Source: an uncultured Gammaproteobacteria bacterium
GTDB lineage: Bacteria > Patescibacteriota > Microgenomatia > UBA12405
Assembly: GCA_964448065.1 (NCBI GenBank)
Contig: CAYUUU010000001.1
Span: 1 to 43,157 of the forward strand
DNA length: 43,157 nucleotides
Direction of reading: 5' to 3'
The notes beneath the pieces are model-generated. The model did no database searches. It saw only the letters and a program-made list of their open reading frames with translations, and had not been told where the DNA came from. Shown piece by piece: positions 2,142 through 43,157 of this stretch; within the stretch, counting starts at the first letter, position 1, and every line of letters starts with the position of its first letter. The position numbers and the translations under genes are program-made.

Positions 2142-2792
2142 ATGAAAGAGAATAGTGATTATTCATTTGGAGGAGAAAAAGAAATGGAAAAGAAAGAAAT
2201 AATTTTGTTTGATATTGATAACACTTTAATCGATACTAAAAAATTATCGAATTTGGCATATACAGATATTGCCCAACAAACAGGAAAAACATTAGAAGAA
2301 ATATCTGGACTTAAAGATGAATATAAAACAGGTTTAGAAACTAATACTGATTTTTATCCAGATAATTTAATTCATTTTTTAGAAGAAAAAACTGGTCAAA
2401 AAATTGATAATCCTTTTGATAATAAAGAAATTTATAAACAGTCGCTTTTTGGAGAAACAGTGGAAATATTGACCAAATTGAAAAAAACTAAAAAAATTGG
2501 AATTTTTTCGGAAGGTTTTGTTGATTACCAAACAAAAAAACTGGAATTTTCTGGAATAATTGATTTTTTTGATAAAGATTTAATTTTTATTAAGAGAAGA
2601 AAATTAGATGATGGTTGTTTAAATAATGAAATCCCAAAAGGAGCAACTATTGTTGATGATAGCCCAAAAGTAGTGGAAAAATTAGGACAAATAGAAAGAT
2701 TTAAAACTGTCTGGTTAAATTTAAATATGTTTAACACTAGTATGACCAACAGTATAATAATTGGATCTTTGAGTGAATTAGCTGTTCAATAA
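2142..2792 (+). CDS. HAD-superfamily hydrolase
   Basis: DxDxT motif in ILFDIDNTLID near the N-terminus and a late acidic motif (IVDDSPK). The true start may be the ATG at 2184 (MEKKEIILFDID). Confidence 0.6.
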   Translation: MKENSDYSFGGEKEMEKKEIILFDIDNTLIDTKKLSNLAYTDIAQQTGKTLEEISGLKDEYKTGLETNTDFYPDNLIHFLEEKTGQKIDNPFDNKEIYKQSLFGETVEILTKLKKTKKIGIFSEGFVDYQTKKLEFSGIIDFFDKDLIFIKRRKLDDGCLNNEIPKGATIVDDSPKVVEKLGQIERFKTVWLNLNMFNTSMTNSIIIGSLSELAVQ

Positions 2793-2822
2793 TTTTTCTA
2801 AAATTTCTTTAGCCAGTTTTGG

Positions 2823-2844
2823 ACCTGCCTGCCGGCAGGCAGGT
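2823..2844. repeat. 22-nt perfect palindrome ACCTGCCTGCCGGCAGGCAGGT, intergenic copy
   Basis: Read directly. GC-rich island between the convergent HAD and gatB stops. Identical to the copy at 3772-3793. Confidence 0.9.
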
Positions 2845-2858
2845 TGGCAGAAAAGAAA

Positions 2859-4403
2859 CTATTTTAAAAGTTTTTCTAATATATTTTTAGCAATTACTGG
2901 ATTTGCCGATCCTTTTGAAGCTTTCATTAATTGACCAATAAGAAATCCAATAGACATCGGATTTTTAAGATAGTCTGAAACTGCTTTTGGATTAGCCTCA
3001 ATTACCTCTTTAGCGATTTTTTCAATTTCACCAGAATCAGAAACTTGAATTAAACCCTTAGACTTGGCAATTTCAACAGGATTAACACCAGTTTGATAAC
3101 TTTCGACAATTACCTGTTTAGCAACGGTGGCAGAAATTTCTGAATTGGAAACGGCCCTAAACAAATCAAAGAAAAATTGAGAATTAATTTTTGATTGATC
3201 TAAGTCTTGACCACTTTCATTAAGATAAGTTTTAATGGCCCCTAAGAAAAGATTGGCTGTAAATTTGGCAAAATCTTTAGTTTTAGCCGAATCAGTAAAT
3301 CCAACTAAATCTTTTAAAGATTTACCGACAATTTTAGTCAAATCATTAGTTTTATTTTTATAAATATAATCAACAATAATAGATTCATAAATATTGGCAA
3401 AAGCAAAATCAGCAGTAATGGTTTGAGCATCATAATCACTTAAACCATAAACTGTTTTATATTTTTCTATTTTTTGATCTGGAAGTTCAGGAACTGAGGC
3501 TTTAATGGCATCAATTTCGGCTTGAGTAAAATTGACATAAGGGATATCTGGTTCTGGAAAATAACGATAATCAGAAGAACCTTCTTTTTCCCGTTGCAAA
3601 AAGGTATGATTTTTATTGGCATCCCAACCACGAGTAGTTTTGTTAGTTTTAGATTTGGTTTCACCGGTTTGTTTAAATTCTTCAAGTTGACGATTGATCT
3701 CAAAATCTATTGCCATTTGAACTCCAGTTAAAGAAGCAACGTTTTTAATTTCGGCGAGAGGAGTATAAACCACCTGCCTGCCGGCAGGCAGGTCATCGGT
3801 TTCGATTTTTAAATTGACAGTTGGTTCACAACGCATACTACCCTTTTCAATATCTGCATCGGAAATACCTAAATATCGGATAATTTGTTGCATTTTAAGA
3901 AGATAATTTTTGGCCATTTGAGCAGAAGTTATGTCTGGTTCGGAAACTATTTCCACAAGCGGAACACCAGAGCGGTTGTAATCGATTAGGGTTAAATCTT
4001 GACCATTATTGGTTAAATGAACAGATTTGCCAGTGTCTTCTTCCATGTGGGCTCGATTAATTCTAATTTCTTGACCATCAACAACTAATTTACCGTTGAT
4101 AACAAAAGGTTTTTCAAATTGAGTTAATTGATAGCCTTTAGCTAAATCTGGATAAAAATAATTTTTTCGCTCAAAAAATGAAGTTAAATTTGGAGTACAA
4201 CCTAGAGCTAAACCCAATTTGATGCACCATTCACAGGCAGTGCGATTGGGAATTGGAAGAGCACCTGGAAGACCTAGACATACAGGACAGGTGTGAGTGT
4301 TAGCTTCAACATGAAAATGAGTTGCCGAACAACTACAAAACATTTTTGATTGAGTGCGAAGCTCGACATGAACTTCAAGACCGATTATTGGTGTGACTTT
4401 CAT
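2859..4403 (-). CDS. gatB: Asp-tRNA(Asn)/Glu-tRNA(Gln) amidotransferase subunit B
   Basis: N-terminus IIGLEVHVEL..SKMFCSC, central EIKN motif, C-terminal YqeY-like tail. Downstream of gatC-gatA on the same strand. Confidence 0.9.
   Translation of the reverse strand: MKVTPIIGLEVHVELRTQSKMFCSCSATHFHVEANTHTCPVCLGLPGALPIPNRTACEWCIKLGLALGCTPNLTSFFERKNYFYPDLAKGYQLTQFEKPFVINGKLVVDGQEIRINRAHMEEDTGKSVHLTNNGQDLTLIDYNRSGVPLVEIVSEPDITSAQMAKNYLLKMQQIIRYLGISDADIEKGSMRCEPTVNLKIETDDLPAGRQVVYTPLAEIKNVASLTGVQMAIDFEINRQLEEFKQTGETKSKTNKTTRGWDANKNHTFLQREKEGSSDYRYFPEPDIPYVNFTQAEIDAIKASVPELPDQKIEKYKTVYGLSDYDAQTITADFAFANIYESIIVDYIYKNKTNDLTKIVGKSLKDLVGFTDSAKTKDFAKFTANLFLGAIKTYLNESGQDLDQSKINSQFFFDLFRAVSNSEISATVAKQVIVESYQTGVNPVEIAKSKGLIQVSDSGEIEKIAKEVIEANPKAVSDYLKNPMSIGFLIGQLMKASKGSANPVIAKNILEKLLK
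3772..3793. repeat. 22-nt perfect palindrome ACCTGCCTGCCGGCAGGCAGGT, copy inside gatB
   Basis: Read directly. Translated in frame as LPAGRQV in ...IETDDLPAGRQVVYTPLAEIKN... Confidence 0.9.
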
Positions 4404-4405
4404 TT

Positions 4406-4446
4406 AAACCCCTCCGCCCTGCGGGCACCTCCCTTTGACAGGGGAG
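4406..4446. repeat. GC-rich two-hairpin element (AAACCC head, GCCC-tgc-GGGC, CTCCC-tttgaca-GGGGAG)
   Basis: Read directly in the gatA-gatB spacer. Same architecture as 4487-4534 and 24859-24915. Confidence 0.75.
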
Positions 4447-4486
4447 CTTTTTTATTTTGTTTTTGATTAATTTTCATTTTTATATT

Positions 4487-4534
4487 AAACCCTCTCCCGA
4501 CGTTCGTCGGGGTCTCCCTTAAAGAAGGGCGATT
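4487..4534. repeat. GC-rich two-hairpin element (AAACCC head, CCCGACG-ttc-GTCGGGG, CTCCC-ttaaagaa-GGGCG)
   Basis: Read directly in the gatA-gatB spacer. Confidence 0.75.
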
Positions 4535-4549
4535 AAAATAATTTTTATT

Positions 4550-7944: not shown

Positions 7945-9849
7945 TTAATAAATATCAGGATCGTAAATAATGTCATCATCATTGGAAGATTTTGGTTTAT
8001 GACGATAATCTCTGACATCACTTTCTTCAAATTCAAGTAAATCTTTGGGGATATCGATTAAAAAGCGACTTGGTTCATTTAAGCTACTTTTGCCAAAAAA
8101 TAAACGACGGCTGGCATAAGAAATGTATAAAAACTCTTTGGCTCGAGTAATACCAACATAACAAAGACGGCGCTCTTCTTCAATTTCAGTTTCATCGATT
8201 AAACAACGAGAGTGAGGCAAAATTCCCTCTTCAAAACCAGCTAAAAAAACAACTTCAAATTCCAAACCTTTGGCTCCGTGAAGAGTCATTAGTCTGACAC
8301 CATCATGATTTTCTTTTTTCTTATTTTTTTCCTGTAGGGAATATTCTTGTTGAACTAAAGTAATATTTTCTAAAAATCCATTTAGACTTGGATAAGAAGC
8401 GGCAACAGATTTTAATTCCTTGATATTCTCAATTCGTTTTTGATCTTCCTCGTCTTTTGGATCGAATTTGTCTAAATAACCAGAGTTAATAGTTAATGAT
8501 TCTAATAGTTCTAAGGAAGTTATGGAATCTAAATTTAAACCATCTAGATAGAATAAAAAACTAGTTTTTTTTCTTTTCCCTATAATTTTATCGACTCGGT
8601 CTTCAGAAATTCGATCGGAACGATCGTGAGCAAATCGGAACAAAGACAAAAGGTCTTTGATTTCGGCACGTTCGTAAAAACGAATACCACCAAGTAAAAC
8701 ATAAGGAATACTAAGACGTAAAAGAGCTTCTTCAAGAGCACGAGATTGAGCATTCATACGATATAAAACAGCCATATCTCTTAATTCTATATGATAGTTT
8801 TCGTTTAAAAATTTGATTTTTTGAGCAATAAAATCTGACTCGGAAACTTCATTTTCGGCTTCAAAAACTTTTATTTTTTGAGTAGAAATTTTTTTGGTAA
8901 AAAGTTTTAAAACTGGATGAGAATTATTTTTGGAAATAACTGAATTAGCCGCTTCCAAAATTATCTGGGTGGAACGATAATTTTCTTCAAGATTTATAAC
9001 CTTGGCATCTTTAAAATCAGTAGTGAAATTAACCAAATTATGATAATCGGCTCCACGCCAACCATAAATAGCCTGGGAAGCGTCGCCGACAACAGTAATT
9101 TGTTTATATTTTTCGGCTAGTAATTTGGTCATAAGGTATTGAATCTGATTGGTATCTTGATATTCATCGACCATAATTACTTTATAAATATTTTGATATT
9201 TTTCTAAGACTTGGGGAAATTGATAAAACAATTCAACTGTCTTGAATAATAAATCATTAAAATCTAGGGCTTGAAAATCACCTAATTTTTCTTGATATTT
9301 TTCGTAAACTTTAGCCGCATATTCCTGCCAAAAACCATGACTTTGAGCAATCATTTCTTTTGGAGTTTGATAAGAATTTTTGGCACTTTCAATAAAATAT
9401 AAAAGACTGCTTGGTTTAAATTCTTTGGGAGTTAGACCTAAATCGTGAAGAATAAGTTTTATTAGATTTTCCTGATCGCCAGAGTCATAAATAACAAAAT
9501 TTTTAGAAACACCAATATGGTGGCCATCGGCTCGCAAAACTTTACAACAAAATGAATGAAAAGTCCCCGCCGTCAGCTGTGCAGACTTGGCGGGCAGGCC
9601 TGATTTTACCTTATATCCAGATAAAAGTTTGGCCATACGATTTTTCATTTCGTCGGCAGCTTTGTTAGTGAAAGTTAAAAGAAGAATTTCACTAGGTTTG
9701 GCAATTTTTTTATTAATAAAATAGGCGGCACGATGGGTTAAAACTCGAGTTTTACCAGATCCGGCTCCAGCTAAAAGTAAAAGTGGACTACCCAAATGAG
9801 TAACCGCTTCTTTTTGTTGAGGATTTAGTGATTTTAAAATATCGTCCAT
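7945..9849 (-). CDS. uvrD: ATP-dependent DNA helicase, UvrD/PcrA family
   Basis: LNPQQKEAV, AGAGSGKTRVLTHR, TFTNKAA, VDEYQDTN, YRS, LMTLHGAKGLEF, YVGITRAK. Confidence 0.9.
   Translation of the reverse strand: MDDILKSLNPQQKEAVTHLGSPLLLLAGAGSGKTRVLTHRAAYFINKKIAKPSEILLLTFTNKAADEMKNRMAKLLSGYKVKSGLPAKSAQLTAGTFHSFCCKVLRADGHHIGVSKNFVIYDSGDQENLIKLILHDLGLTPKEFKPSSLLYFIESAKNSYQTPKEMIAQSHGFWQEYAAKVYEKYQEKLGDFQALDFNDLLFKTVELFYQFPQVLEKYQNIYKVIMVDEYQDTNQIQYLMTKLLAEKYKQITVVGDASQAIYGWRGADYHNLVNFTTDFKDAKVINLEENYRSTQIILEAANSVISKNNSHPVLKLFTKKISTQKIKVFEAENEVSESDFIAQKIKFLNENYHIELRDMAVLYRMNAQSRALEEALLRLSIPYVLLGGIRFYERAEIKDLLSLFRFAHDRSDRISEDRVDKIIGKRKKTSFLFYLDGLNLDSITSLELLESLTINSGYLDKFDPKDEEDQKRIENIKELKSVAASYPSLNGFLENITLVQQEYSLQEKNKKKENHDGVRLMTLHGAKGLEFEVVFLAGFEEGILPHSRCLIDETEIEEERRLCYVGITRAKEFLYISYASRRLFFGKSSLNEPSRFLIDIPKDLLEFEESDVRDYRHKPKSSNDDDIIYDPDIY
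9565..9602. repeat. GC-rich hairpin element inside uvrD (CCGCC...GGCGG plus GCAGGCC)
   Basis: GC island in an AT-rich gene. Translated in frame as SGLPAKSAQLTAG, between helicase motif Ia (TFTNKAADEM) and GTFHSF. Confidence 0.7.
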
Positions 9850-9858
9850 CGGATTTAA

Positions 9859-11979
9859 CTATAGTTGGTAAATCTTGGTTTTACCAGACTGAAATACAAC
9901 TTGCCCACCAATCTTTATAAAAATGTCTTCGTTGAGATTTGGATATTTTTCGCGTTCTTTATTGCCAACAAAAATATATTTAACATTATATTTTTGTAAC
10001 AAAGTTTTAGTTTCATTAGTATCTTGGGACTCATAAATTTTTTGAACATCATCTTGACGTTCTTTTGGTTTATCATAACCACCACGCCAAAGCCATTCAT
10101 GAACAATCCACCCCTGGACAGTAGGTAAACCAGTAGATACAGAAACTTGACCAAAAGTGGTGTAGCTGTCCCCAACTGCTTCTAAAATTACTGGCTGACC
10201 AGAAACATTTTTGTTTAACCAGTTGATGGCAATAAAATTATCTGGATATAAATCTTTTAAATAATTTAAACCATATAAACCTTGATAATTTTCAATTCCA
10301 TAAAATGATTTAATGGCAAAATAAGGATACGACAGATGAATAATAAAAATTATAACAGCTAATAGATAGTAAAAAATACGAATAATTTTTTGAGAAATTA
10401 AGGTTTTGGCCCGAAAAATAAAATATCCAGAGGAAAGAGAATACAAAATGAAGGCTTGGTAAACTAATTTGAACATCGTATTGGCTCGACGATGTTCGTA
10501 AATATAAATGTCTTTGATATAAACAAACTCAGGAATAATAATTAAAATGGTAGCGGTAACAAAAAGTGAAAAAGCAAAAATATCGGATTTGGTTAATTTT
10601 AAATAGCGACGGAAAAATCTATAAATTAAAACTAAAATAATTGGAATATTGATTAACCAAAAACCACCATACAAAATAAATAATTGATAAAAAGGAGTAT
10701 GAGAATCGGCTAGTTTTATACCTTGAGTCATTGGACTAAAATTTAGGGAGAAAGGCAGAGAAAATAAATACCAAAAAACAATCGTTAAAAAACCATTTGA
10801 TAAAGTTTTGTTAAAAGAGATTAATAATTTATTTGATTTAAGATTATTTAAAAAAGTAAAAATAGCAAAGAAAATTCCATAAATAGCAAAATCCCAAGCG
10901 TTGGTCATATAGGCAATAGCTAAAATTAAGGCCGAAGGAATAATAAGTTTAAAATTTAAAATTTTTTCTGATGATTTGATTAAAGAAATTGATAATAAAA
11001 AAGCCAAGAAAAAAATAACAATTGGCAAATCATTTAGATGACCATGAAGATCGGAAACAACAAAACTGTAAATTGGAAATTCATGAATGGTTTTATCGCT
11101 AGTAACTGGATCGTAACCAATAAAACGAGTAGCATCTGGATACCAATATTTTGAAGCAGATTTAATAAAAGCATCTTTGGTTAAAACTAATTTATTGTTA
11201 TCAGTAATATTGATTTTAATAATTTTATATAAAGGATGAAGGTTGCCGCCGAAAGTTAATAAAAAAGCCGAGATTAAACCAAAAAAAACAACTTGATAAC
11301 TAAACCCTTCCCTAACCCTTCCCTTGACAGGGCAGGATAAGAAAAGATAAACCAAATTGGAGACCAAAGAAAAAGAAAAAGTAAAAGCCATGGCACAAAT
11401 AGTTGCTATTGATAAGTTATAAGTAATGGTTGAACTAATGGTGCTAAATTTGGTTAAAAAAGCAAAAATGTAATGACCAAAATAATAATAATTAATGGGG
11501 CTACCAGCAAACCACATATCTTGAGGAGGGGAAAAACGGCTACGTAGGATAGTGTTTATAAATCCCCAATCCATATATTTCTCTAGACCTTCAAGATCTG
11601 GAGCAAAACCACGAACAAAAGACCAGCTGATTAAAATTATTAAAAATAGAATTTCTTCAAAAACAAAAAACTTATATTTTTCTTTTAAAACTTGAATAAA
11701 TTTTTTAAAACAATTTTTGTTAAAAAAGAAAAAAATAAAATTAGTAAGAATAATTAGGCTAAAAATAATTAAGAAAGAGGTATTAGTAAAAGGTAAAATT
11801 TTTAAAACTCCTAGAGTAAAAGTAAGATAAGAAAATATTAAAACACCAATTATTTTGGAAAAAATATAACCTTTATCCCAAAATTTTTTGAATAAAGAAA
11901 AAGTTAAAGGCAAAAAAATAAGAGCAATAGAATTTATGGAAAGGTACCAAAAAATGATGAAATTAAGATCGGACAACAT
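9859..11979 (-). CDS. DUF2298 (YYY-motif) polytopic membrane protein
   Basis: 706 aa, many TM segments, signature SPINYYYFGHY, C-terminal soluble domain. Confidence 0.7.
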   Translation of the reverse strand: MLSDLNFIIFWYLSINSIALIFLPLTFSLFKKFWDKGYIFSKIIGVLIFSYLTFTLGVLKILPFTNTSFLIIFSLIILTNFIFFFFNKNCFKKFIQVLKEKYKFFVFEEILFLIILISWSFVRGFAPDLEGLEKYMDWGFINTILRSRFSPPQDMWFAGSPINYYYFGHYIFAFLTKFSTISSTITYNLSIATICAMAFTFSFSLVSNLVYLFLSCPVKGRVREGFSYQVVFFGLISAFLLTFGGNLHPLYKIIKINITDNNKLVLTKDAFIKSASKYWYPDATRFIGYDPVTSDKTIHEFPIYSFVVSDLHGHLNDLPIVIFFLAFLLSISLIKSSEKILNFKLIIPSALILAIAYMTNAWDFAIYGIFFAIFTFLNNLKSNKLLISFNKTLSNGFLTIVFWYLFSLPFSLNFSPMTQGIKLADSHTPFYQLFILYGGFWLINIPIILVLIYRFFRRYLKLTKSDIFAFSLFVTATILIIIPEFVYIKDIYIYEHRRANTMFKLVYQAFILYSLSSGYFIFRAKTLISQKIIRIFYYLLAVIIFIIHLSYPYFAIKSFYGIENYQGLYGLNYLKDLYPDNFIAINWLNKNVSGQPVILEAVGDSYTTFGQVSVSTGLPTVQGWIVHEWLWRGGYDKPKERQDDVQKIYESQDTNETKTLLQKYNVKYIFVGNKEREKYPNLNEDIFIKIGGQVVFQSGKTKIYQL
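11302..11335. repeat. GC-rich element (AAACCCTTCCCTAACCCTTCCCTTGACAGGGCAGG) inside the DUF2298 gene
   Basis: Read directly. Translated in frame as CPVKGRVREGF. Related to the CCCCTC-TTTGACAA-GAGGGG family. Confidence 0.7.
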
Positions 11980-24856: not shown

Positions 24857-24858
24857 TT

Positions 24859-24915
24859 AAAACCCACCCACCCCGCAATGGCGGGGCACCCTCCCTTAAG
24901 TAATGGAGGGCGATT
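24859..24915. repeat. GC-rich two-hairpin element (AAAACCC head, CCCCGC-aatg-GCGGGG, CCCTCC-cttaagtaat-GGAGGG)
   Basis: Read directly. Starts 2 nt after the tatD stop. Confidence 0.8.
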
Positions 24916-24923
24916 TTTATATT

Positions 24924-24994
24924 AAAACCACTCAGTCCCGATAAATCGGGACACTTGCCTGACGGCAGGCAGGTCTCCCCTTGATGAAAGGGAG
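24924..24994. repeat. GC-rich three-hairpin element (GTCCCG-ataaa-TCGGGAC, CTTGCCTG-acgg-CAGGCAGG, CTCCCC-ttgatgaaa-GGGAG)
   Basis: Read directly. The middle hairpin (24954-24974) is a degenerate copy of the 22-nt palindrome at 2823 and 3772. Confidence 0.8.
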
Positions 24995-24999
24995 CAGTA

Positions 25000-36977: not shown

Positions 36978-37011
36978 CAATCTTCCCCTGCCCCCTCTTT
37001 GACAAGAGGGG
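36978..37011. repeat. GC-rich element CAATCTTCCCCTGCCCCCTCTTTGACAAGAGGGG, intergenic copy
   Basis: Read directly, between the AlkD-like stop and the deaminase start. Confidence 0.85.
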
Positions 37012-37015
37012 TTAA

Positions 37016-41374: not shown

Positions 41375-41647
41375 TTAAGATTGTAGAGACGCCCCGCGGG
41401 GCGTCTCTACAGAAGTTAACTTTATTTTTTCAGTTCTAGATAATTTTTTAATTCTAGATTCTTCTTTGGAAGCAAGTGATCTGTTTTCAAATTCTTTGGA
41501 ATAAACTAATTTTACGGGACGACGAACTTTGGTGTATTTGGCACCTAATTTAGAGCTGTTATGTTCTTTGATTCTTCTTTCTAAATCGGTGGTAATTCCA
41601 GTGTAAAGAGTTTGATCATTACACTGAATAATATAAAGAAAATACAT
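41375..41647 (-). CDS. GIY-YIG nuclease family protein (UPF0213-like)
   Basis: YFLYIIQC.DQTLYTGITTDLERRIKEHN, plus the R, E and N core. The C-terminal 12 aa (SVETPRGASLQS) are encoded by the palindrome. Confidence 0.8.
   Translation of the reverse strand: MYFLYIIQCNDQTLYTGITTDLERRIKEHNSSKLGAKYTKVRRPVKLVYSKEFENRSLASKEESRIKKLSRTEKIKLTSVETPRGASLQS
41382..41411. repeat. 30-nt perfect palindrome TGTAGAGACGCCCCGCGGGGCGTCTCTACA (REP-like, GTAG-headed)
   Basis: Read directly. Identical to 41926-41955. Confidence 0.9.
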
Positions 41648-41648
41648 T

Positions 41649-42241
41649 TTATTTTTTATAAAATTTATCTTTTTGCCAATTAATAGGGTTATTTATTATA
41701 TAGTTTTTAACTATTGATAGTTCTTTTTTGTTTTGAATAATATGATCGTAAAATCTTGATTGCCAAGAAAAAAATAAATGTTGTTGATCACAAATTCGTT
41801 TGACTGATGATTTAAATTGATTAATGACTTTAGGAATTTCTTGATTTGATTTTACATTTAATCTTTTAAAAAACTCTGGATGGTTTTGATGTGATGGAAT
41901 AATAATTGGTGATATTTGATCTTTATGTAGAGACGCCCCGCGGGGCGTCTCTACAAGAATTTCCCGTATAGTAATCAATAAATGAAGATGGTTGGGGGCA
42001 TTACCACCCAAGGGTTTATGATTAAATTATTTCGAAGGGAAATTGTTTTTAATAATTCATTTTTGGTTATTTTTCCAATTTCTGATAATTCCATTTTATT
42101 ATCAATAATTTTTCCAAAGAAATTGTTTTTATTGTAAGTACAAATAGTGATGAAATAATAGCCAGGGTTTGAATAATCCCAGTTATTTAAACGAGAAGAA
42201 TTAATTTTGTATCGATCATCAAATCGATTTTCCATTTTCAT
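41649..42241 (-). pseudogene. REP-associated tyrosine transposase (RAYT; IS200/IS605-type Y1 HUH enzyme) split by a frameshift
   Basis: Track ORFs 41975-42241 and 41649-42011 join into one protein if one C is removed from the C5 run (G5 on the + strand, 41987-41991): ...NPWVVMPNHLHLLI (HUH motif) ... WQSRFYDHIIQN (catalytic Tyr) ...NNPINW. Its ATG overlaps the rarA TGA (ATGA). Confidence 0.7.
41926..41955. repeat. 30-nt perfect palindrome TGTAGAGACGCCCCGCGGGGCGTCTCTACA inside the RAYT gene
   Basis: Read directly. Translated in frame as VETPRGASL, just after the HUH motif. Confidence 0.9.
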
Positions 42242-43157
42242 TTATTTTTTGGTTTAAAATATTTTTTACCTTTTAATTTTTCAGGTAATAAATCCTCTTT
42301 TGAATACATTTGGTAACCCTGACCATAGCCAATCTCTTTCATTAGTTTAGTTTCGGCATTGCGGAGATTAAGCGGTATTGGAAGATTACCATATTGTTGA
42401 ACATCGGCCAGAGCGGATAAATAACCCTCGTAAGCAGAACGGTCTTTGGGACTCTTGGCTAAATAAACAACTCCATGGGCTAGATTTTCCCGACACTCTG
42501 GATAACCAATGGTTTCACAGGTTCTAAAGACCTCATTGGCTAACATAAGAGCTGAGGAGTTAGCAATTCCAATATCTTCACTAGCAAAGACAACCATTCG
42601 TCTGGCAATAAACTTTGGATCTTCTCCGGCTTCGATTAGACGAGCTAGATAATAAAGAGAGGCGTCGACATTTGATGCTCTCATACTCTTAATTAATGAG
42701 CTGATAGTATTGTAATGTTCCTCCCCTTTTTTATCGAAGCGAAGAAAAGTGTTTTGAAGAGCCTGTTTAAGACTTTCGAGTTTTAAATTGCCGTATAAAG
42801 TATAGGCATTATCAAGCATAGTAATGCATTGACGAGCATCACCGTTGGCCATTTGAATAAGCCATTCCTTGGCATCTTTTTTAATTAAAACCCCTTTTTT
42901 ATCTAAACCCTTCTTTGATTTCACAATCTCCCCTAACCCCTCTTTGACAAGAGGGGGACTTAAAACAGAAACAGCCCTGTCTATTATTTGACCTATTTCT
43001 TCATCAGATAATTCTTTTAAAACAAAAACTCGGCAACGAGAAAGAAGTGGAGAGATAACTTCAAAAGAAGGGTTTTCGGTGGTGGCCCCAATTAAAATTA
43101 AAGCTCCTGATTCAACTGAAGGAAGTAAAAAATCTTGTTGAGCTTTGTTGAAACGGT
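42238..43157 (-). CDS. rarA: replication-associated recombination protein A (AAA+ ATPase), partial (N-terminus off the right edge)
   Basis: My translation upstream of the track ORF stays open: RFNKAQQDFLLPSVESGALILIGATTENPSFEVISPLLSRCRVFVLKEL... then ANGDARQ and the MgsA C-terminal domain. Confidence 0.85.
   Translation of the reverse strand, partial: RFNKAQQDFLLPSVESGALILIGATTENPSFEVISPLLSRCRVFVLKELSDEEIGQIIDRAVSVLSPPLVKEGLGEIVKSKKGLDKKGVLIKKDAKEWLIQMANGDARQCITMLDNAYTLYGNLKLESLKQALQNTFLRFDKKGEEHYNTISSLIKSMRASNVDASLYYLARLIEAGEDPKFIARRMVVFASEDIGIANSSALMLANEVFRTCETIGYPECRENLAHGVVYLAKSPKDRSAYEGYLSALADVQQYGNLPIPLNLRNAETKLMKEIGYGQGYQMYSKEDLLPEKLKGKKYFKPKNK
42923..42957. repeat. GC-rich element CAATCTCCCCTAACCCCTCTTTGACAAGAGGGGG inside rarA
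   Basis: Read directly. Translated in frame, in the opposite orientation to the metG copy, as SPPLVKEGLGEI. Confidence 0.85.

Follow-up and report, generated by a model that had tools for sequence, protein, structure and literature searches.

A 20-nucleotide palindrome, probably a tiny REP-like insertion unit, in spacers and genes of a Patescibacteria contig and of many other bacteria

The window analysed here, the whole 43,157-nt stretch of contig CAYUUU010000001.1 from a patescibacterial metagenome assembly, carries two exact copies of a 22-nt perfect palindrome, ACCTGCCTGCCGGCAGGCAGGT, one in the 66-nt stop-to-stop spacer between the convergent genes for a HAD-family hydrolase and for GatB, the other inside gatB, where it is translated as ..ETDDLPAGRQVVYTP.. 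(Table 1). We consider it probable (about 0.7) that this 22-mer is the A + core + T form of a tiny non-coding, insertion-type palindrome resembling the repetitive extragenic palindromes (REPs), which occurs unchanged across phyla. What is conserved is the inner 20-mer, CCTGCCTGCCGGCAGGCAGG; in other genomes the bases of the outer A..T pair vary. Both exact copies are derived states, missing from the syntenic sites of close relatives, which supports the recent copying proposed in an earlier, sequence-only reading of this DNA. That reading had noticed the identical pair and argued that such identity could not be fortuitous, and this is borne out, since about 0.03 matches to the 22-mer would be expected in 596 Gb whereas reference genomes hold at least 119 loci; the 22-mer is therefore far from unique to its two sites in the window. 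None of 100 dinucleotide-preserving shuffles of the window contained a match. Because the window has only 30% G+C, the sites of the 22-mer are strong G+C outliers, forming islands. A degenerate third copy had also been claimed and is indeed present with two mismatches (ACtTGCCTGaCGGCAGGCAGGT); it is a decayed copy in a mosaic of hairpins, and its TGACGGCA variant is also found in the gatB loop of a relative, L135.

Our scans of species-representative genomes and of metagenomes, both of which give lower bounds, found the unchanged 22-mer at at least 119 loci of the former, in about nine phyla, and the 20-mer core at at least 120 metagenome loci ranging from 29 to 71% G+C. Among the loci listed, cultured carriers include the Bacteroidota Maribacter, Winogradskyella, Flagellimonas, Aquiflexum, and Aestuariivivens, and the other hosts include Ignavibacteria, Planctomycetota, Gammaproteobacteria, Bdellovibrionales, Thermodesulfovibrio, Desulfobacteraceae, Dehalococcoidia, and many Patescibacteria. 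Complete genomes with the palindrome include those of Maribacter sp. R86514 (NZ_CP138999.1), M. halichondriae (NZ_CP107030.1), and a member of the Chitinophagaceae (OY970066.1). Viral contigs contain the 22-mer in 7 loci and its stems with any loop in 47, and two control palindromes of the same composition had no match in these contigs; a phage origin was rejected given the rarity of the 22-mer there. With the 8-bp stems held fixed and the loop left free, CCGG occupies the loop in 42 of 57 copies, and no conserved flank emerged over 270 flanks (at most 0.12 bit per position). The largely constant loop, the variable outer bases, and the uninformative flanks thus place the constraint on one 20-nt unit, whatever the composition of the host. 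The 20-mer, its 16-nt inner segment, and a 22-nt segment of a second palindrome described below occur in no paper of the open-access text searched, and the 20-mer is missing from the REP tables and supplements of two surveys (PMC6006769 and PMC3733652). No Rfam family matched the window at gathering thresholds. The 20-mer looks like a variant, hitherto undescribed, within a known class of small repeats.

The 20-mer enters DNA as an exact 20-nt unit, with neither target-site duplication nor loss of target. For 22 of 319 copies, the joined 9+9-nt flanks have an exact uninterrupted paralogue, usually 30-400 nt away, and in these the insert always measures exactly 20 nt, with no target base duplicated or lost. 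The target-site duplication or preferred insertion motif that the sequence-only reading had anticipated did not materialize; what we found were exact 20-nt units with no duplication and no conserved flank. The filled copy tends to occupy one member of a local duplication, the duplicated hosts being tRNA fragments, tandem repeats of 117-135 nt, and, in one case, the 5' end of a gene. Direct repeats of 7-9 nt do abut the core in 20 of 175 and 6 of 126 copies, but we rejected target-site duplication as their source since the same 7-9 nt arrays occur elsewhere without the core, and insertion into a tandem array of period p yields p-nt repeats; their apparent T...A bias is an artefact of the A..T 22-mer having been selected. 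Many copies are embedded in such tandem arrays (with units such as TCAACAAA, TTGCGGA, TTCGTCA, and TGAGAGG), which are intergenic and occur in Bacteroidota and Planctomycetota (L042, L084, L061, L022, L115, L083, L057, L139, and others). Other G+C-rich hairpins, including GTAG-tagged REP arrays, are enriched approximately fourfold within 300 nt of the 20-mer.

Among 81 classifiable copies (from loci of at most 50% G+C, with crude gene calls based on open reading frames (ORFs)), 58 (about 72%) are intergenic, against 14% of intergenic DNA. Between 23 and 30 copies lie inside long open frames, 17 of 30 in the LPAGRQ frame and mostly as xLPAGRQV, and in-frame copies outside the window occur in RluA-like, TrpRS-like, and RmlD-like genes (the latter two named from flanking peptides). 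A close parallel to the paired copies of the window is found in an RluA-like pseudouridine synthase of Staskawiczbacteria (L065, 3282-3971), where two in-frame 22-mers 459 nt apart are read as ..QGDLPAGRQVKQ.. and ..VKYLPAGRQVAH...

To place the coding copy, we compared the window GatB with 18 close orthologues and with members of its own 90% cluster; GatB homology assigns the organism to Candidatus Shapirobacteria (Patescibacteria, also known as Candidate Phyla Radiation or CPR). Against DDGQ(T/V)(V/I) in more than 20 orthologues, the window protein reads DDLPAGRQVV, and the sole exception is P0246 (encoded at L135), a 93% identical GatB that reads DDGSNLPDGRQAV at the same loop. Its LPDGRQA peptide is itself encoded by a variant of the same hairpin, and it is not the case that orthologues already encode LPAGRQV with other codons. 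At the DNA level, the closest relatives (L137, L120, and L136) have GATGA-CGGTCAAAC-(C/T)GTC at this site and L135 has GATGATGGT-T-CAAA[CCTGCCTGACGGCAGGCAGG]CCGTC. L136, a 98%-identical sister of L135, has the empty site GATGACGGTCAAACCGTC, and the alignment of these two across the junction (GGT-T-CAAA[20-mer]CCGTC in L135, GGTCAAACCGTC in L136) therefore identifies an exact 20-nt insertion in L135. An additional T, located five bases upstream of it, brings the total gain to +21 and so puts the frame right again. The window site, GATGA[CCTGCCTGCCGGCAGGCAGG]TGGTT, differs from that of L135 by nine bases fewer (residues GSN), by one A-to-C change that perfects the palindrome centre, and by changes creating the outer A-T pair. 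The window copy accordingly probably stems from the same insertion as in L135 (20 nt plus the compensating T) followed by a 9-nt in-frame deletion; it would have entered the lineage on a recombination tract, and recent copying or gene conversion would have erased any difference from its neighbour. Alternatively, the window and L135 may have received separate hits on the same permissive loop. Upstream of the hairpin site L135 and L136 differ at 29 of 611 nt and downstream at 1 of about 900, a switch in divergence that reflects either recombination with its breakpoint at the hairpin or an assembly that mixes strains.

In the protein, the insert is a four-residue extension of a variable loop in the cradle domain. 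Its position corresponds to a gap region in the alignments with two solved bacterial GatB structures of unequal length there, Thermotoga 3AL0 and Aquifex 3H0L, the two that were printed, which is consistent with a tolerated loop extension. We infer that the GatB copy is a tolerated, presumably neutral, passenger and not an adaptation. A purely local origin, through template-switch (quasipalindrome) mutation or (CCTG)n slippage with no copying, might be suspected from the GGGCAGGT found at the gatB site of L121, which resembles the right arm, and from the fact that both changes from the L135 to the window copy perfect the palindrome. Nevertheless, hundreds of unrelated genomes carry this very 20-mer, palindromes of matching composition are absent, and in the nearest relatives, L137, L120, and L136, the site reads CGGTCAAAC and not a half-palindrome; this explanation is effectively refuted. 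Assembly or sequencing artefacts have a negligible probability: palindromes can produce chimeric reads or contig joins, and both the window and several relatives are metagenome assemblies, yet the frame of gatB is intact across its copy, an independent Joint Genome Institute (JGI) assembly has a variant in that loop, and the 22-mer occurs in complete genomes of cultured isolates.

The intergenic copy has a more composite history. The HAD and gatB genes overlap or sit 1 nt apart in L120, L121, L125, L127, L136, and L137, and compared with L120 the window carries at this junction a 78-nt insertion that includes the palindrome. Abutting the palindrome is a relic of a gatB 3' end, reading PKLAKEILEKLLNS*, which matches L137 at 40 of 43 positions and overlaps the HAD stop codon as gatB does in relatives, while the functional gatB 3' end (2859-2906) matches L135/L136 at 47 of 48. 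The linker between the palindrome and the gatB stop, TGGCAGAAAAGAAA, is also an inverted near-copy of relic bases, a weak and post hoc match. At the right junction the core is followed by TTGGCAGA, exactly as at insertions into the D-arm of tRNA-Leu in Bacteroidota (L050 and L109), which hints, weakly and post hoc, that the copy might come from such a tRNA-Leu context. gatB itself is a mosaic: its nt 501-985 (window 3419-3903) and 1501-1545 (window 2859-2903) are of L135/L136 type and the rest is of L137/L120 type (18/20 versus 22/79 informative sites, Fisher p = 5e-7, with boundaries set post hoc). The first tract contains the coding copy and the second abuts the intergenic one; the palindrome copies therefore lie in or beside recombination tracts that were probably imported. 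The intergenic copy is at a recombination/duplication joint, with a gatB 3' end of L136 type on one side and the resident relic end on the other, and this relic recalls the insertions into local duplicates seen in other genomes.

The location of this copy raises the question of a selected function, as a bidirectional 3'-end stabiliser, a terminator, or a protein-binding site acting as RNA or DNA, the gatB copy being then fortuitous or regulatory. REPs often act on RNA between convergent genes (PMC3733652), the 83-nt intergenic region folds at -25 to -28 kcal/mol (z = -2.5 to -4.3), and the sequence is invariant across phyla. As in intrinsic terminators, a stable G+C-rich stem-loop stands between convergent genes. 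In contrast with them, other copies of the 20-mer are found in genes, upstream of genes, and in pseudo-tRNAs, and the sequence-only reading was right that the intergenic copy is no canonical terminator: it has no T-tract (U-tract in RNA) and the terminator scan called it on neither strand, the coding copy alone having a weak T-run. The spacers show no orientation preference either, with 41 tandem, 9 divergent, and 8 convergent copies, close to their share of spacer base pairs, and we rejected on these counts a bias toward convergent genes or 3' ends across genomes. Moreover, presence or absence varies between close relatives, copies sit in pseudo-tRNA fragments, tandem arrays, and protein loops, and near-variants of the 20-mer mostly break pairs rather than compensate, all of which makes a selected function improbable.

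Work by Nunvar in 2010 and by Bertels and Rainey in 2011 reportedly deals with REP elements and REPINs together with RAYT transposases. The 20-mer shares with them a short (20-40 nt) G+C-rich stem-loop palindrome, mostly extragenic and clustered in mosaics, a variable presence between close relatives, the lack of target duplication, and occasional in-frame insertion in genes, including repair genes. It differs by being a perfect palindrome, whereas REPs are imperfect, by lacking a GT[AG]G or CGTC foot and a flanking RAYT (the REPtron arrangement), and by being one sequence common to many phyla, with apparently few copies per locus, instead of a species-specific family. REP/REPIN-RAYT systems have been surveyed by Di Nocera in 2013 (PMC3733652) and Quentin in 2018 (PMC6006769), REPs and Rickettsia palindromic elements (RPEs) are known to lie in frame within genes (PMC3733652; PMC6006769), and duplication-free mobility of hairpins by HUH Y1 enzymes is established for IS200/IS605 (PMC6006769).

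The window does encode such an enzyme, a TnpA_REP/RAYT protein with the NHLH, WQ, and YIINNP motifs of subclass 2.4 (classification after PMC6006769). Its gene bears a +2 frameshift in a C-run and has an intact, more than 99% identical counterpart (P0121) in another sample. Close to it we found a second identical pair of perfect palindromes, TGTAGAGACGCCCCGCGGGGCGTCTCTACA, one (41382-41411) providing the last codons of a GIY-YIG gene (..VETPRGASLQS*) and the other (41926-41955) in frame just after the HuH motif of the RAYT gene; the pair agrees, with its 5' GTAG, with the 'double-foot' REPs of TnpA_REP subclass 2.4. All 120 homologues of this RAYT embed GTAGAGACG..CGTCTCTAC, read in one of two frames as VETPxxASL or CRDVxxxVST, so that the TGTAGAGACGCCCCGCGGGGCGTCTCTACA pair is of a known kind, a 'double-foot REP inside tnpA_REP' having been described (PMC6006769). 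The 20-mer could be a bona fide REP moved in trans by a TnpA_REP/RAYT such as this one. Besides the presence of the gene, the exact insertion of the 20-mer fits HUH Y1 enzymes, whose transfer of hairpin DNA leaves the target unduplicated, in-frame insertion into genes is known for subclass-2.4 REPs (both PMC6006769), and at L029 and L080 the 20-mer lies beside GTAG-tagged REPs. Against this, the 20-mer has no GT[AG]G or CGTC foot, the REP embedded in all 120 homologues is a different palindrome, no RAYT gene lies within 8 kb of any of the 119 listed genome loci, and the 20-mer is not among the REPs of the two surveys' supplements. We regard this possibility as rather unlikely.

A second candidate emerged from the neighbours of the 20-mer. 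When ORFs within 2.5 kb of a copy were clustered into families across 286 loci, the sole recurrent family was a small GIY-YIG nuclease of about 90 residues, found at 14-16 loci, while every other family reached at most 5; no transposase family was enriched near the 20-mer. At nine loci the hairpin lies 47-106 nt upstream of the GIY-YIG ORF, inside a 5' tRNA-gene fragment, and at six an intact copy of the same tRNA follows 50-183 nt after the ORF. These insertions into tRNA fragments are clean, in or beside the D-arm, and sometimes double, and for 19 copies the flanks, once joined, match tRNAs in alignments that span the junction. The 20-mer is thus strongly over-represented in redundant local duplicates, above all in 5' tRNA fragments beside small GIY-YIG genes. 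In-silico excision followed by ARAGORN placed only 2 of 320 copies in otherwise complete tRNAs, most contexts being fragments. One of these two is a phage tRNA-Met (viral contigs L141 and L163), still recognised as a gene by ARAGORN, that carries the 20-mer exactly at the variable-loop position, where it would resemble the long extra arm typical of class II tRNAs. The full arrangement, a 5' tRNA part with one or two 20-mers, then a small GIY-YIG ORF, then the intact same tRNA, is found at L106, L035, L171, L222, L228, L251, L272, L277, L067, and L038, the upstream tRNA copy often stopping just after the anticodon loop. This cassette looks like an undescribed tRNA-associated GIY-YIG element, and searches of open-access text on GIY-YIG/YhbQ proteins and on links to tRNAs retrieved nothing relevant.

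The 20-mer might therefore belong to such a tRNA-targeting cassette, or be a filler or scar at the breaks made by its nuclease, solo copies being by-products. The enrichment of this family and its tRNA context point in this direction, as do the gene of the same family in the window and the intergenic right junction shared with tRNA-Leu D-arm insertions. Conversely, about 95% of loci have no GIY-YIG gene in reach, no tRNA gene was found in the window, where 38 kb separate the GIY-YIG gene from the copies, the tRNA fragments may be mere neutral landing sites, and the literature searched holds no biochemical data for this subfamily. Such a tie is doubtful.

We favour the REP-like insertion unit, for which the self-complementary 20-mer would insert at intermediates of replication or repair, as a hairpin or as single-stranded DNA, with the help of a nuclease acting in trans for which the HUH-type TnpA_REP and the small GIY-YIG enzyme are the candidates in the window; selection would then spare copies only in dispensable DNA and permissive loops. 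Several observations weigh against it. Neither exact copy in the window has a clean empty/filled junction, the gatB copy exchanging 10 nt for 22 and the intergenic copy being accompanied by a diverged 45-nt duplication; the L135 and L136 sequences come from short metagenome contigs that may be strain chimeras. Little compensatory change is seen among 20-mer variants, an observation that speaks neither for nor against a structural role. Copy number looks low among the loci listed (1-3 per locus, and 2+1 copies in the 43-kb window), unlike classical REP families. The RAYT of the window has another palindrome as its cognate REP and RAYT genes are missing around the listed loci, the GIY-YIG gene accompanies only about 5% of loci, and the 20-mer lacks both a GTAG/CGTC tag and a linked RAYT. 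A more tentative proposal is that the 20-mer is a pan-bacterial ultra-small insertion element or break-repair filler with its own, RAYT-independent mechanism. It would go into DNA precisely and without target duplication, with a preference for redundant local duplicates such as tRNA fragments beside GIY-YIG genes; conceivably, CCTGCCTGCC would be added symmetrically to the two 3' ends of a break, which are then ligated, or a self-annealed oligonucleotide would be ligated in.

Comparison with other families of small repeats also sets the 20-mer apart. Ogata et al. reportedly described in 2000 the RPEs, found in frame in protein genes of Rickettsia. RPEs and the 20-mer have in common selfish palindromic DNA in frame in essential genes, a small A+T-rich genome, and tolerance in surface loops, but RPEs measure 100-150 bp, are restricted to one lineage, and add 30-50 residues, whereas the 20-mer adds 4-7; it has no homology to the RPE family and no match to Rfam or any other family. 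In yeast mitochondria, GC clusters form G+C-rich self-complementary islands in an A+T-rich genome. Such islands, like the 20-mer, invade spacers and sometimes genes, and repetitive hairpin-forming elements are described in sponge mitochondria (PMC2800124); these organellar families are lineage-specific, and nothing points to a sequence or mechanism common to them and the 20-mer. Miniature inverted-repeat transposable elements (MITEs) are likewise non-autonomous with two inverted arms, but the 20-mer lacks a target-site duplication and is about five times shorter than typical MITEs. A parent insertion sequence with matching ends was rejected, as the 1.4 Mb of loci contain no pair of half-sites with a transposase between them.

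A short palindromic repeat is usually confined to one species and linked to a RAYT, whereas the 20-mer is common, in unchanged form, to Patescibacteria, Bacteroidota, Planctomycetota, Pseudomonadota, and others. Its insertion is precise to the base pair, and both essential genes and fragments of tRNA genes harbour it. Should it possess a mobilising activity of its own, possibly that of small GIY-YIG nucleases, it would be the smallest known bacterial insertion unit and would give those proteins a testable function; under the more tentative, RAYT-independent proposal, no enzyme before the small GIY-YIG family would have been tied to such events. In more practical terms, the 20-mer explains the short peptides LPAGRQ, PACRQAG, and TCLPAGR of predicted proteins, serves in CPR genomes as a marker of recent indels and of recombination joints, and is a likely cause of assembly breaks.

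Table 1. Palindrome copies, their host and neighbouring genes, and candidate trans-acting factors in the 43,157-nt window.
Feature	Position	Strand	Remarks
HAD-family hydrolase gene	2142..2792	+	Convergent with gatB; Pfam Hydrolase, HAD_2
Relic gatB 3' end	2778..2822	-	Abuts palindrome; overlaps HAD stop codon
Intergenic copy	2823..2844 (core 2824-2843)	.	Between convergent HAD and gatB; exact match
14-nt linker	2845..2858	.	From palindrome to gatB stop
gatB	2859..4403	-	Host of coding copy; Pfam GatB_N, GatB_Yqey
Coding copy in gatB	3772..3793 (core 3773-3792)	.	Exact match; minus-strand reading D-LPAGRQ-V; net +12 nt
Degenerate third copy (TGACGGCA variant)	24953..24974	.	Within five-hairpin G+C-rich mosaic 24862-24995, downstream of tatD
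Small GIY-YIG nuclease gene	41375..41647	-	Candidate trans-acting factor; Pfam PF01541, 3.3e-18
TnpA_REP/RAYT gene, subclass 2.4	41649..42241	-	Candidate trans-acting factor; frameshifted in C-run

Hairpin turnover in this lineage extends beyond the 20-mer. The window and L120 share 14.4 kb at about 88% identity; the window has six specific indels of at least 12 nt there, of which five are G+C-rich hairpin sequence, and the sole long insertion specific to L120 (63 nt) likewise consists of two hairpins. Two of the window-specific hairpin indels, in-frame replacements relative to L120 at 9562-9603 in a UvrD-like gene (7945-9849) and at 11317-11340 in a DUF2298 gene (9859-11979), are read as ..SGLPAKSAQLTAG.. 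and ..LSCPVKGRVREGF.., respectively, from hairpins that differ in sequence from ACCTGCCTGCCGGCAGGCAGGT. Composite two-hairpin modules starting with TTAAA(A)CC (window 4404-4549 and 24857-24995; L120 2490-2552) fill the spacer downstream of tatD as well as that between gatA and gatB, whose length is 146 nt in the window, 81 nt in L120, and 0 nt in L121. It is by gaining G+C-rich hairpins that spacers lengthen in this lineage, and those of the gatCAB operon are no exception. Another repeat pair, the third, is a hairpin with a TTGACAA loop, CAATCT(T)CCCCT..CCCCTCTTTGACAAGAGGGG, that occupies 36978-37015 and 42925-42962, each copy directly upstream of the start of a minus-strand gene, and related CTCCC-TTGAxxA-GGGAG hairpins are found at 4429-4446, at 24975-24994, and in L120.

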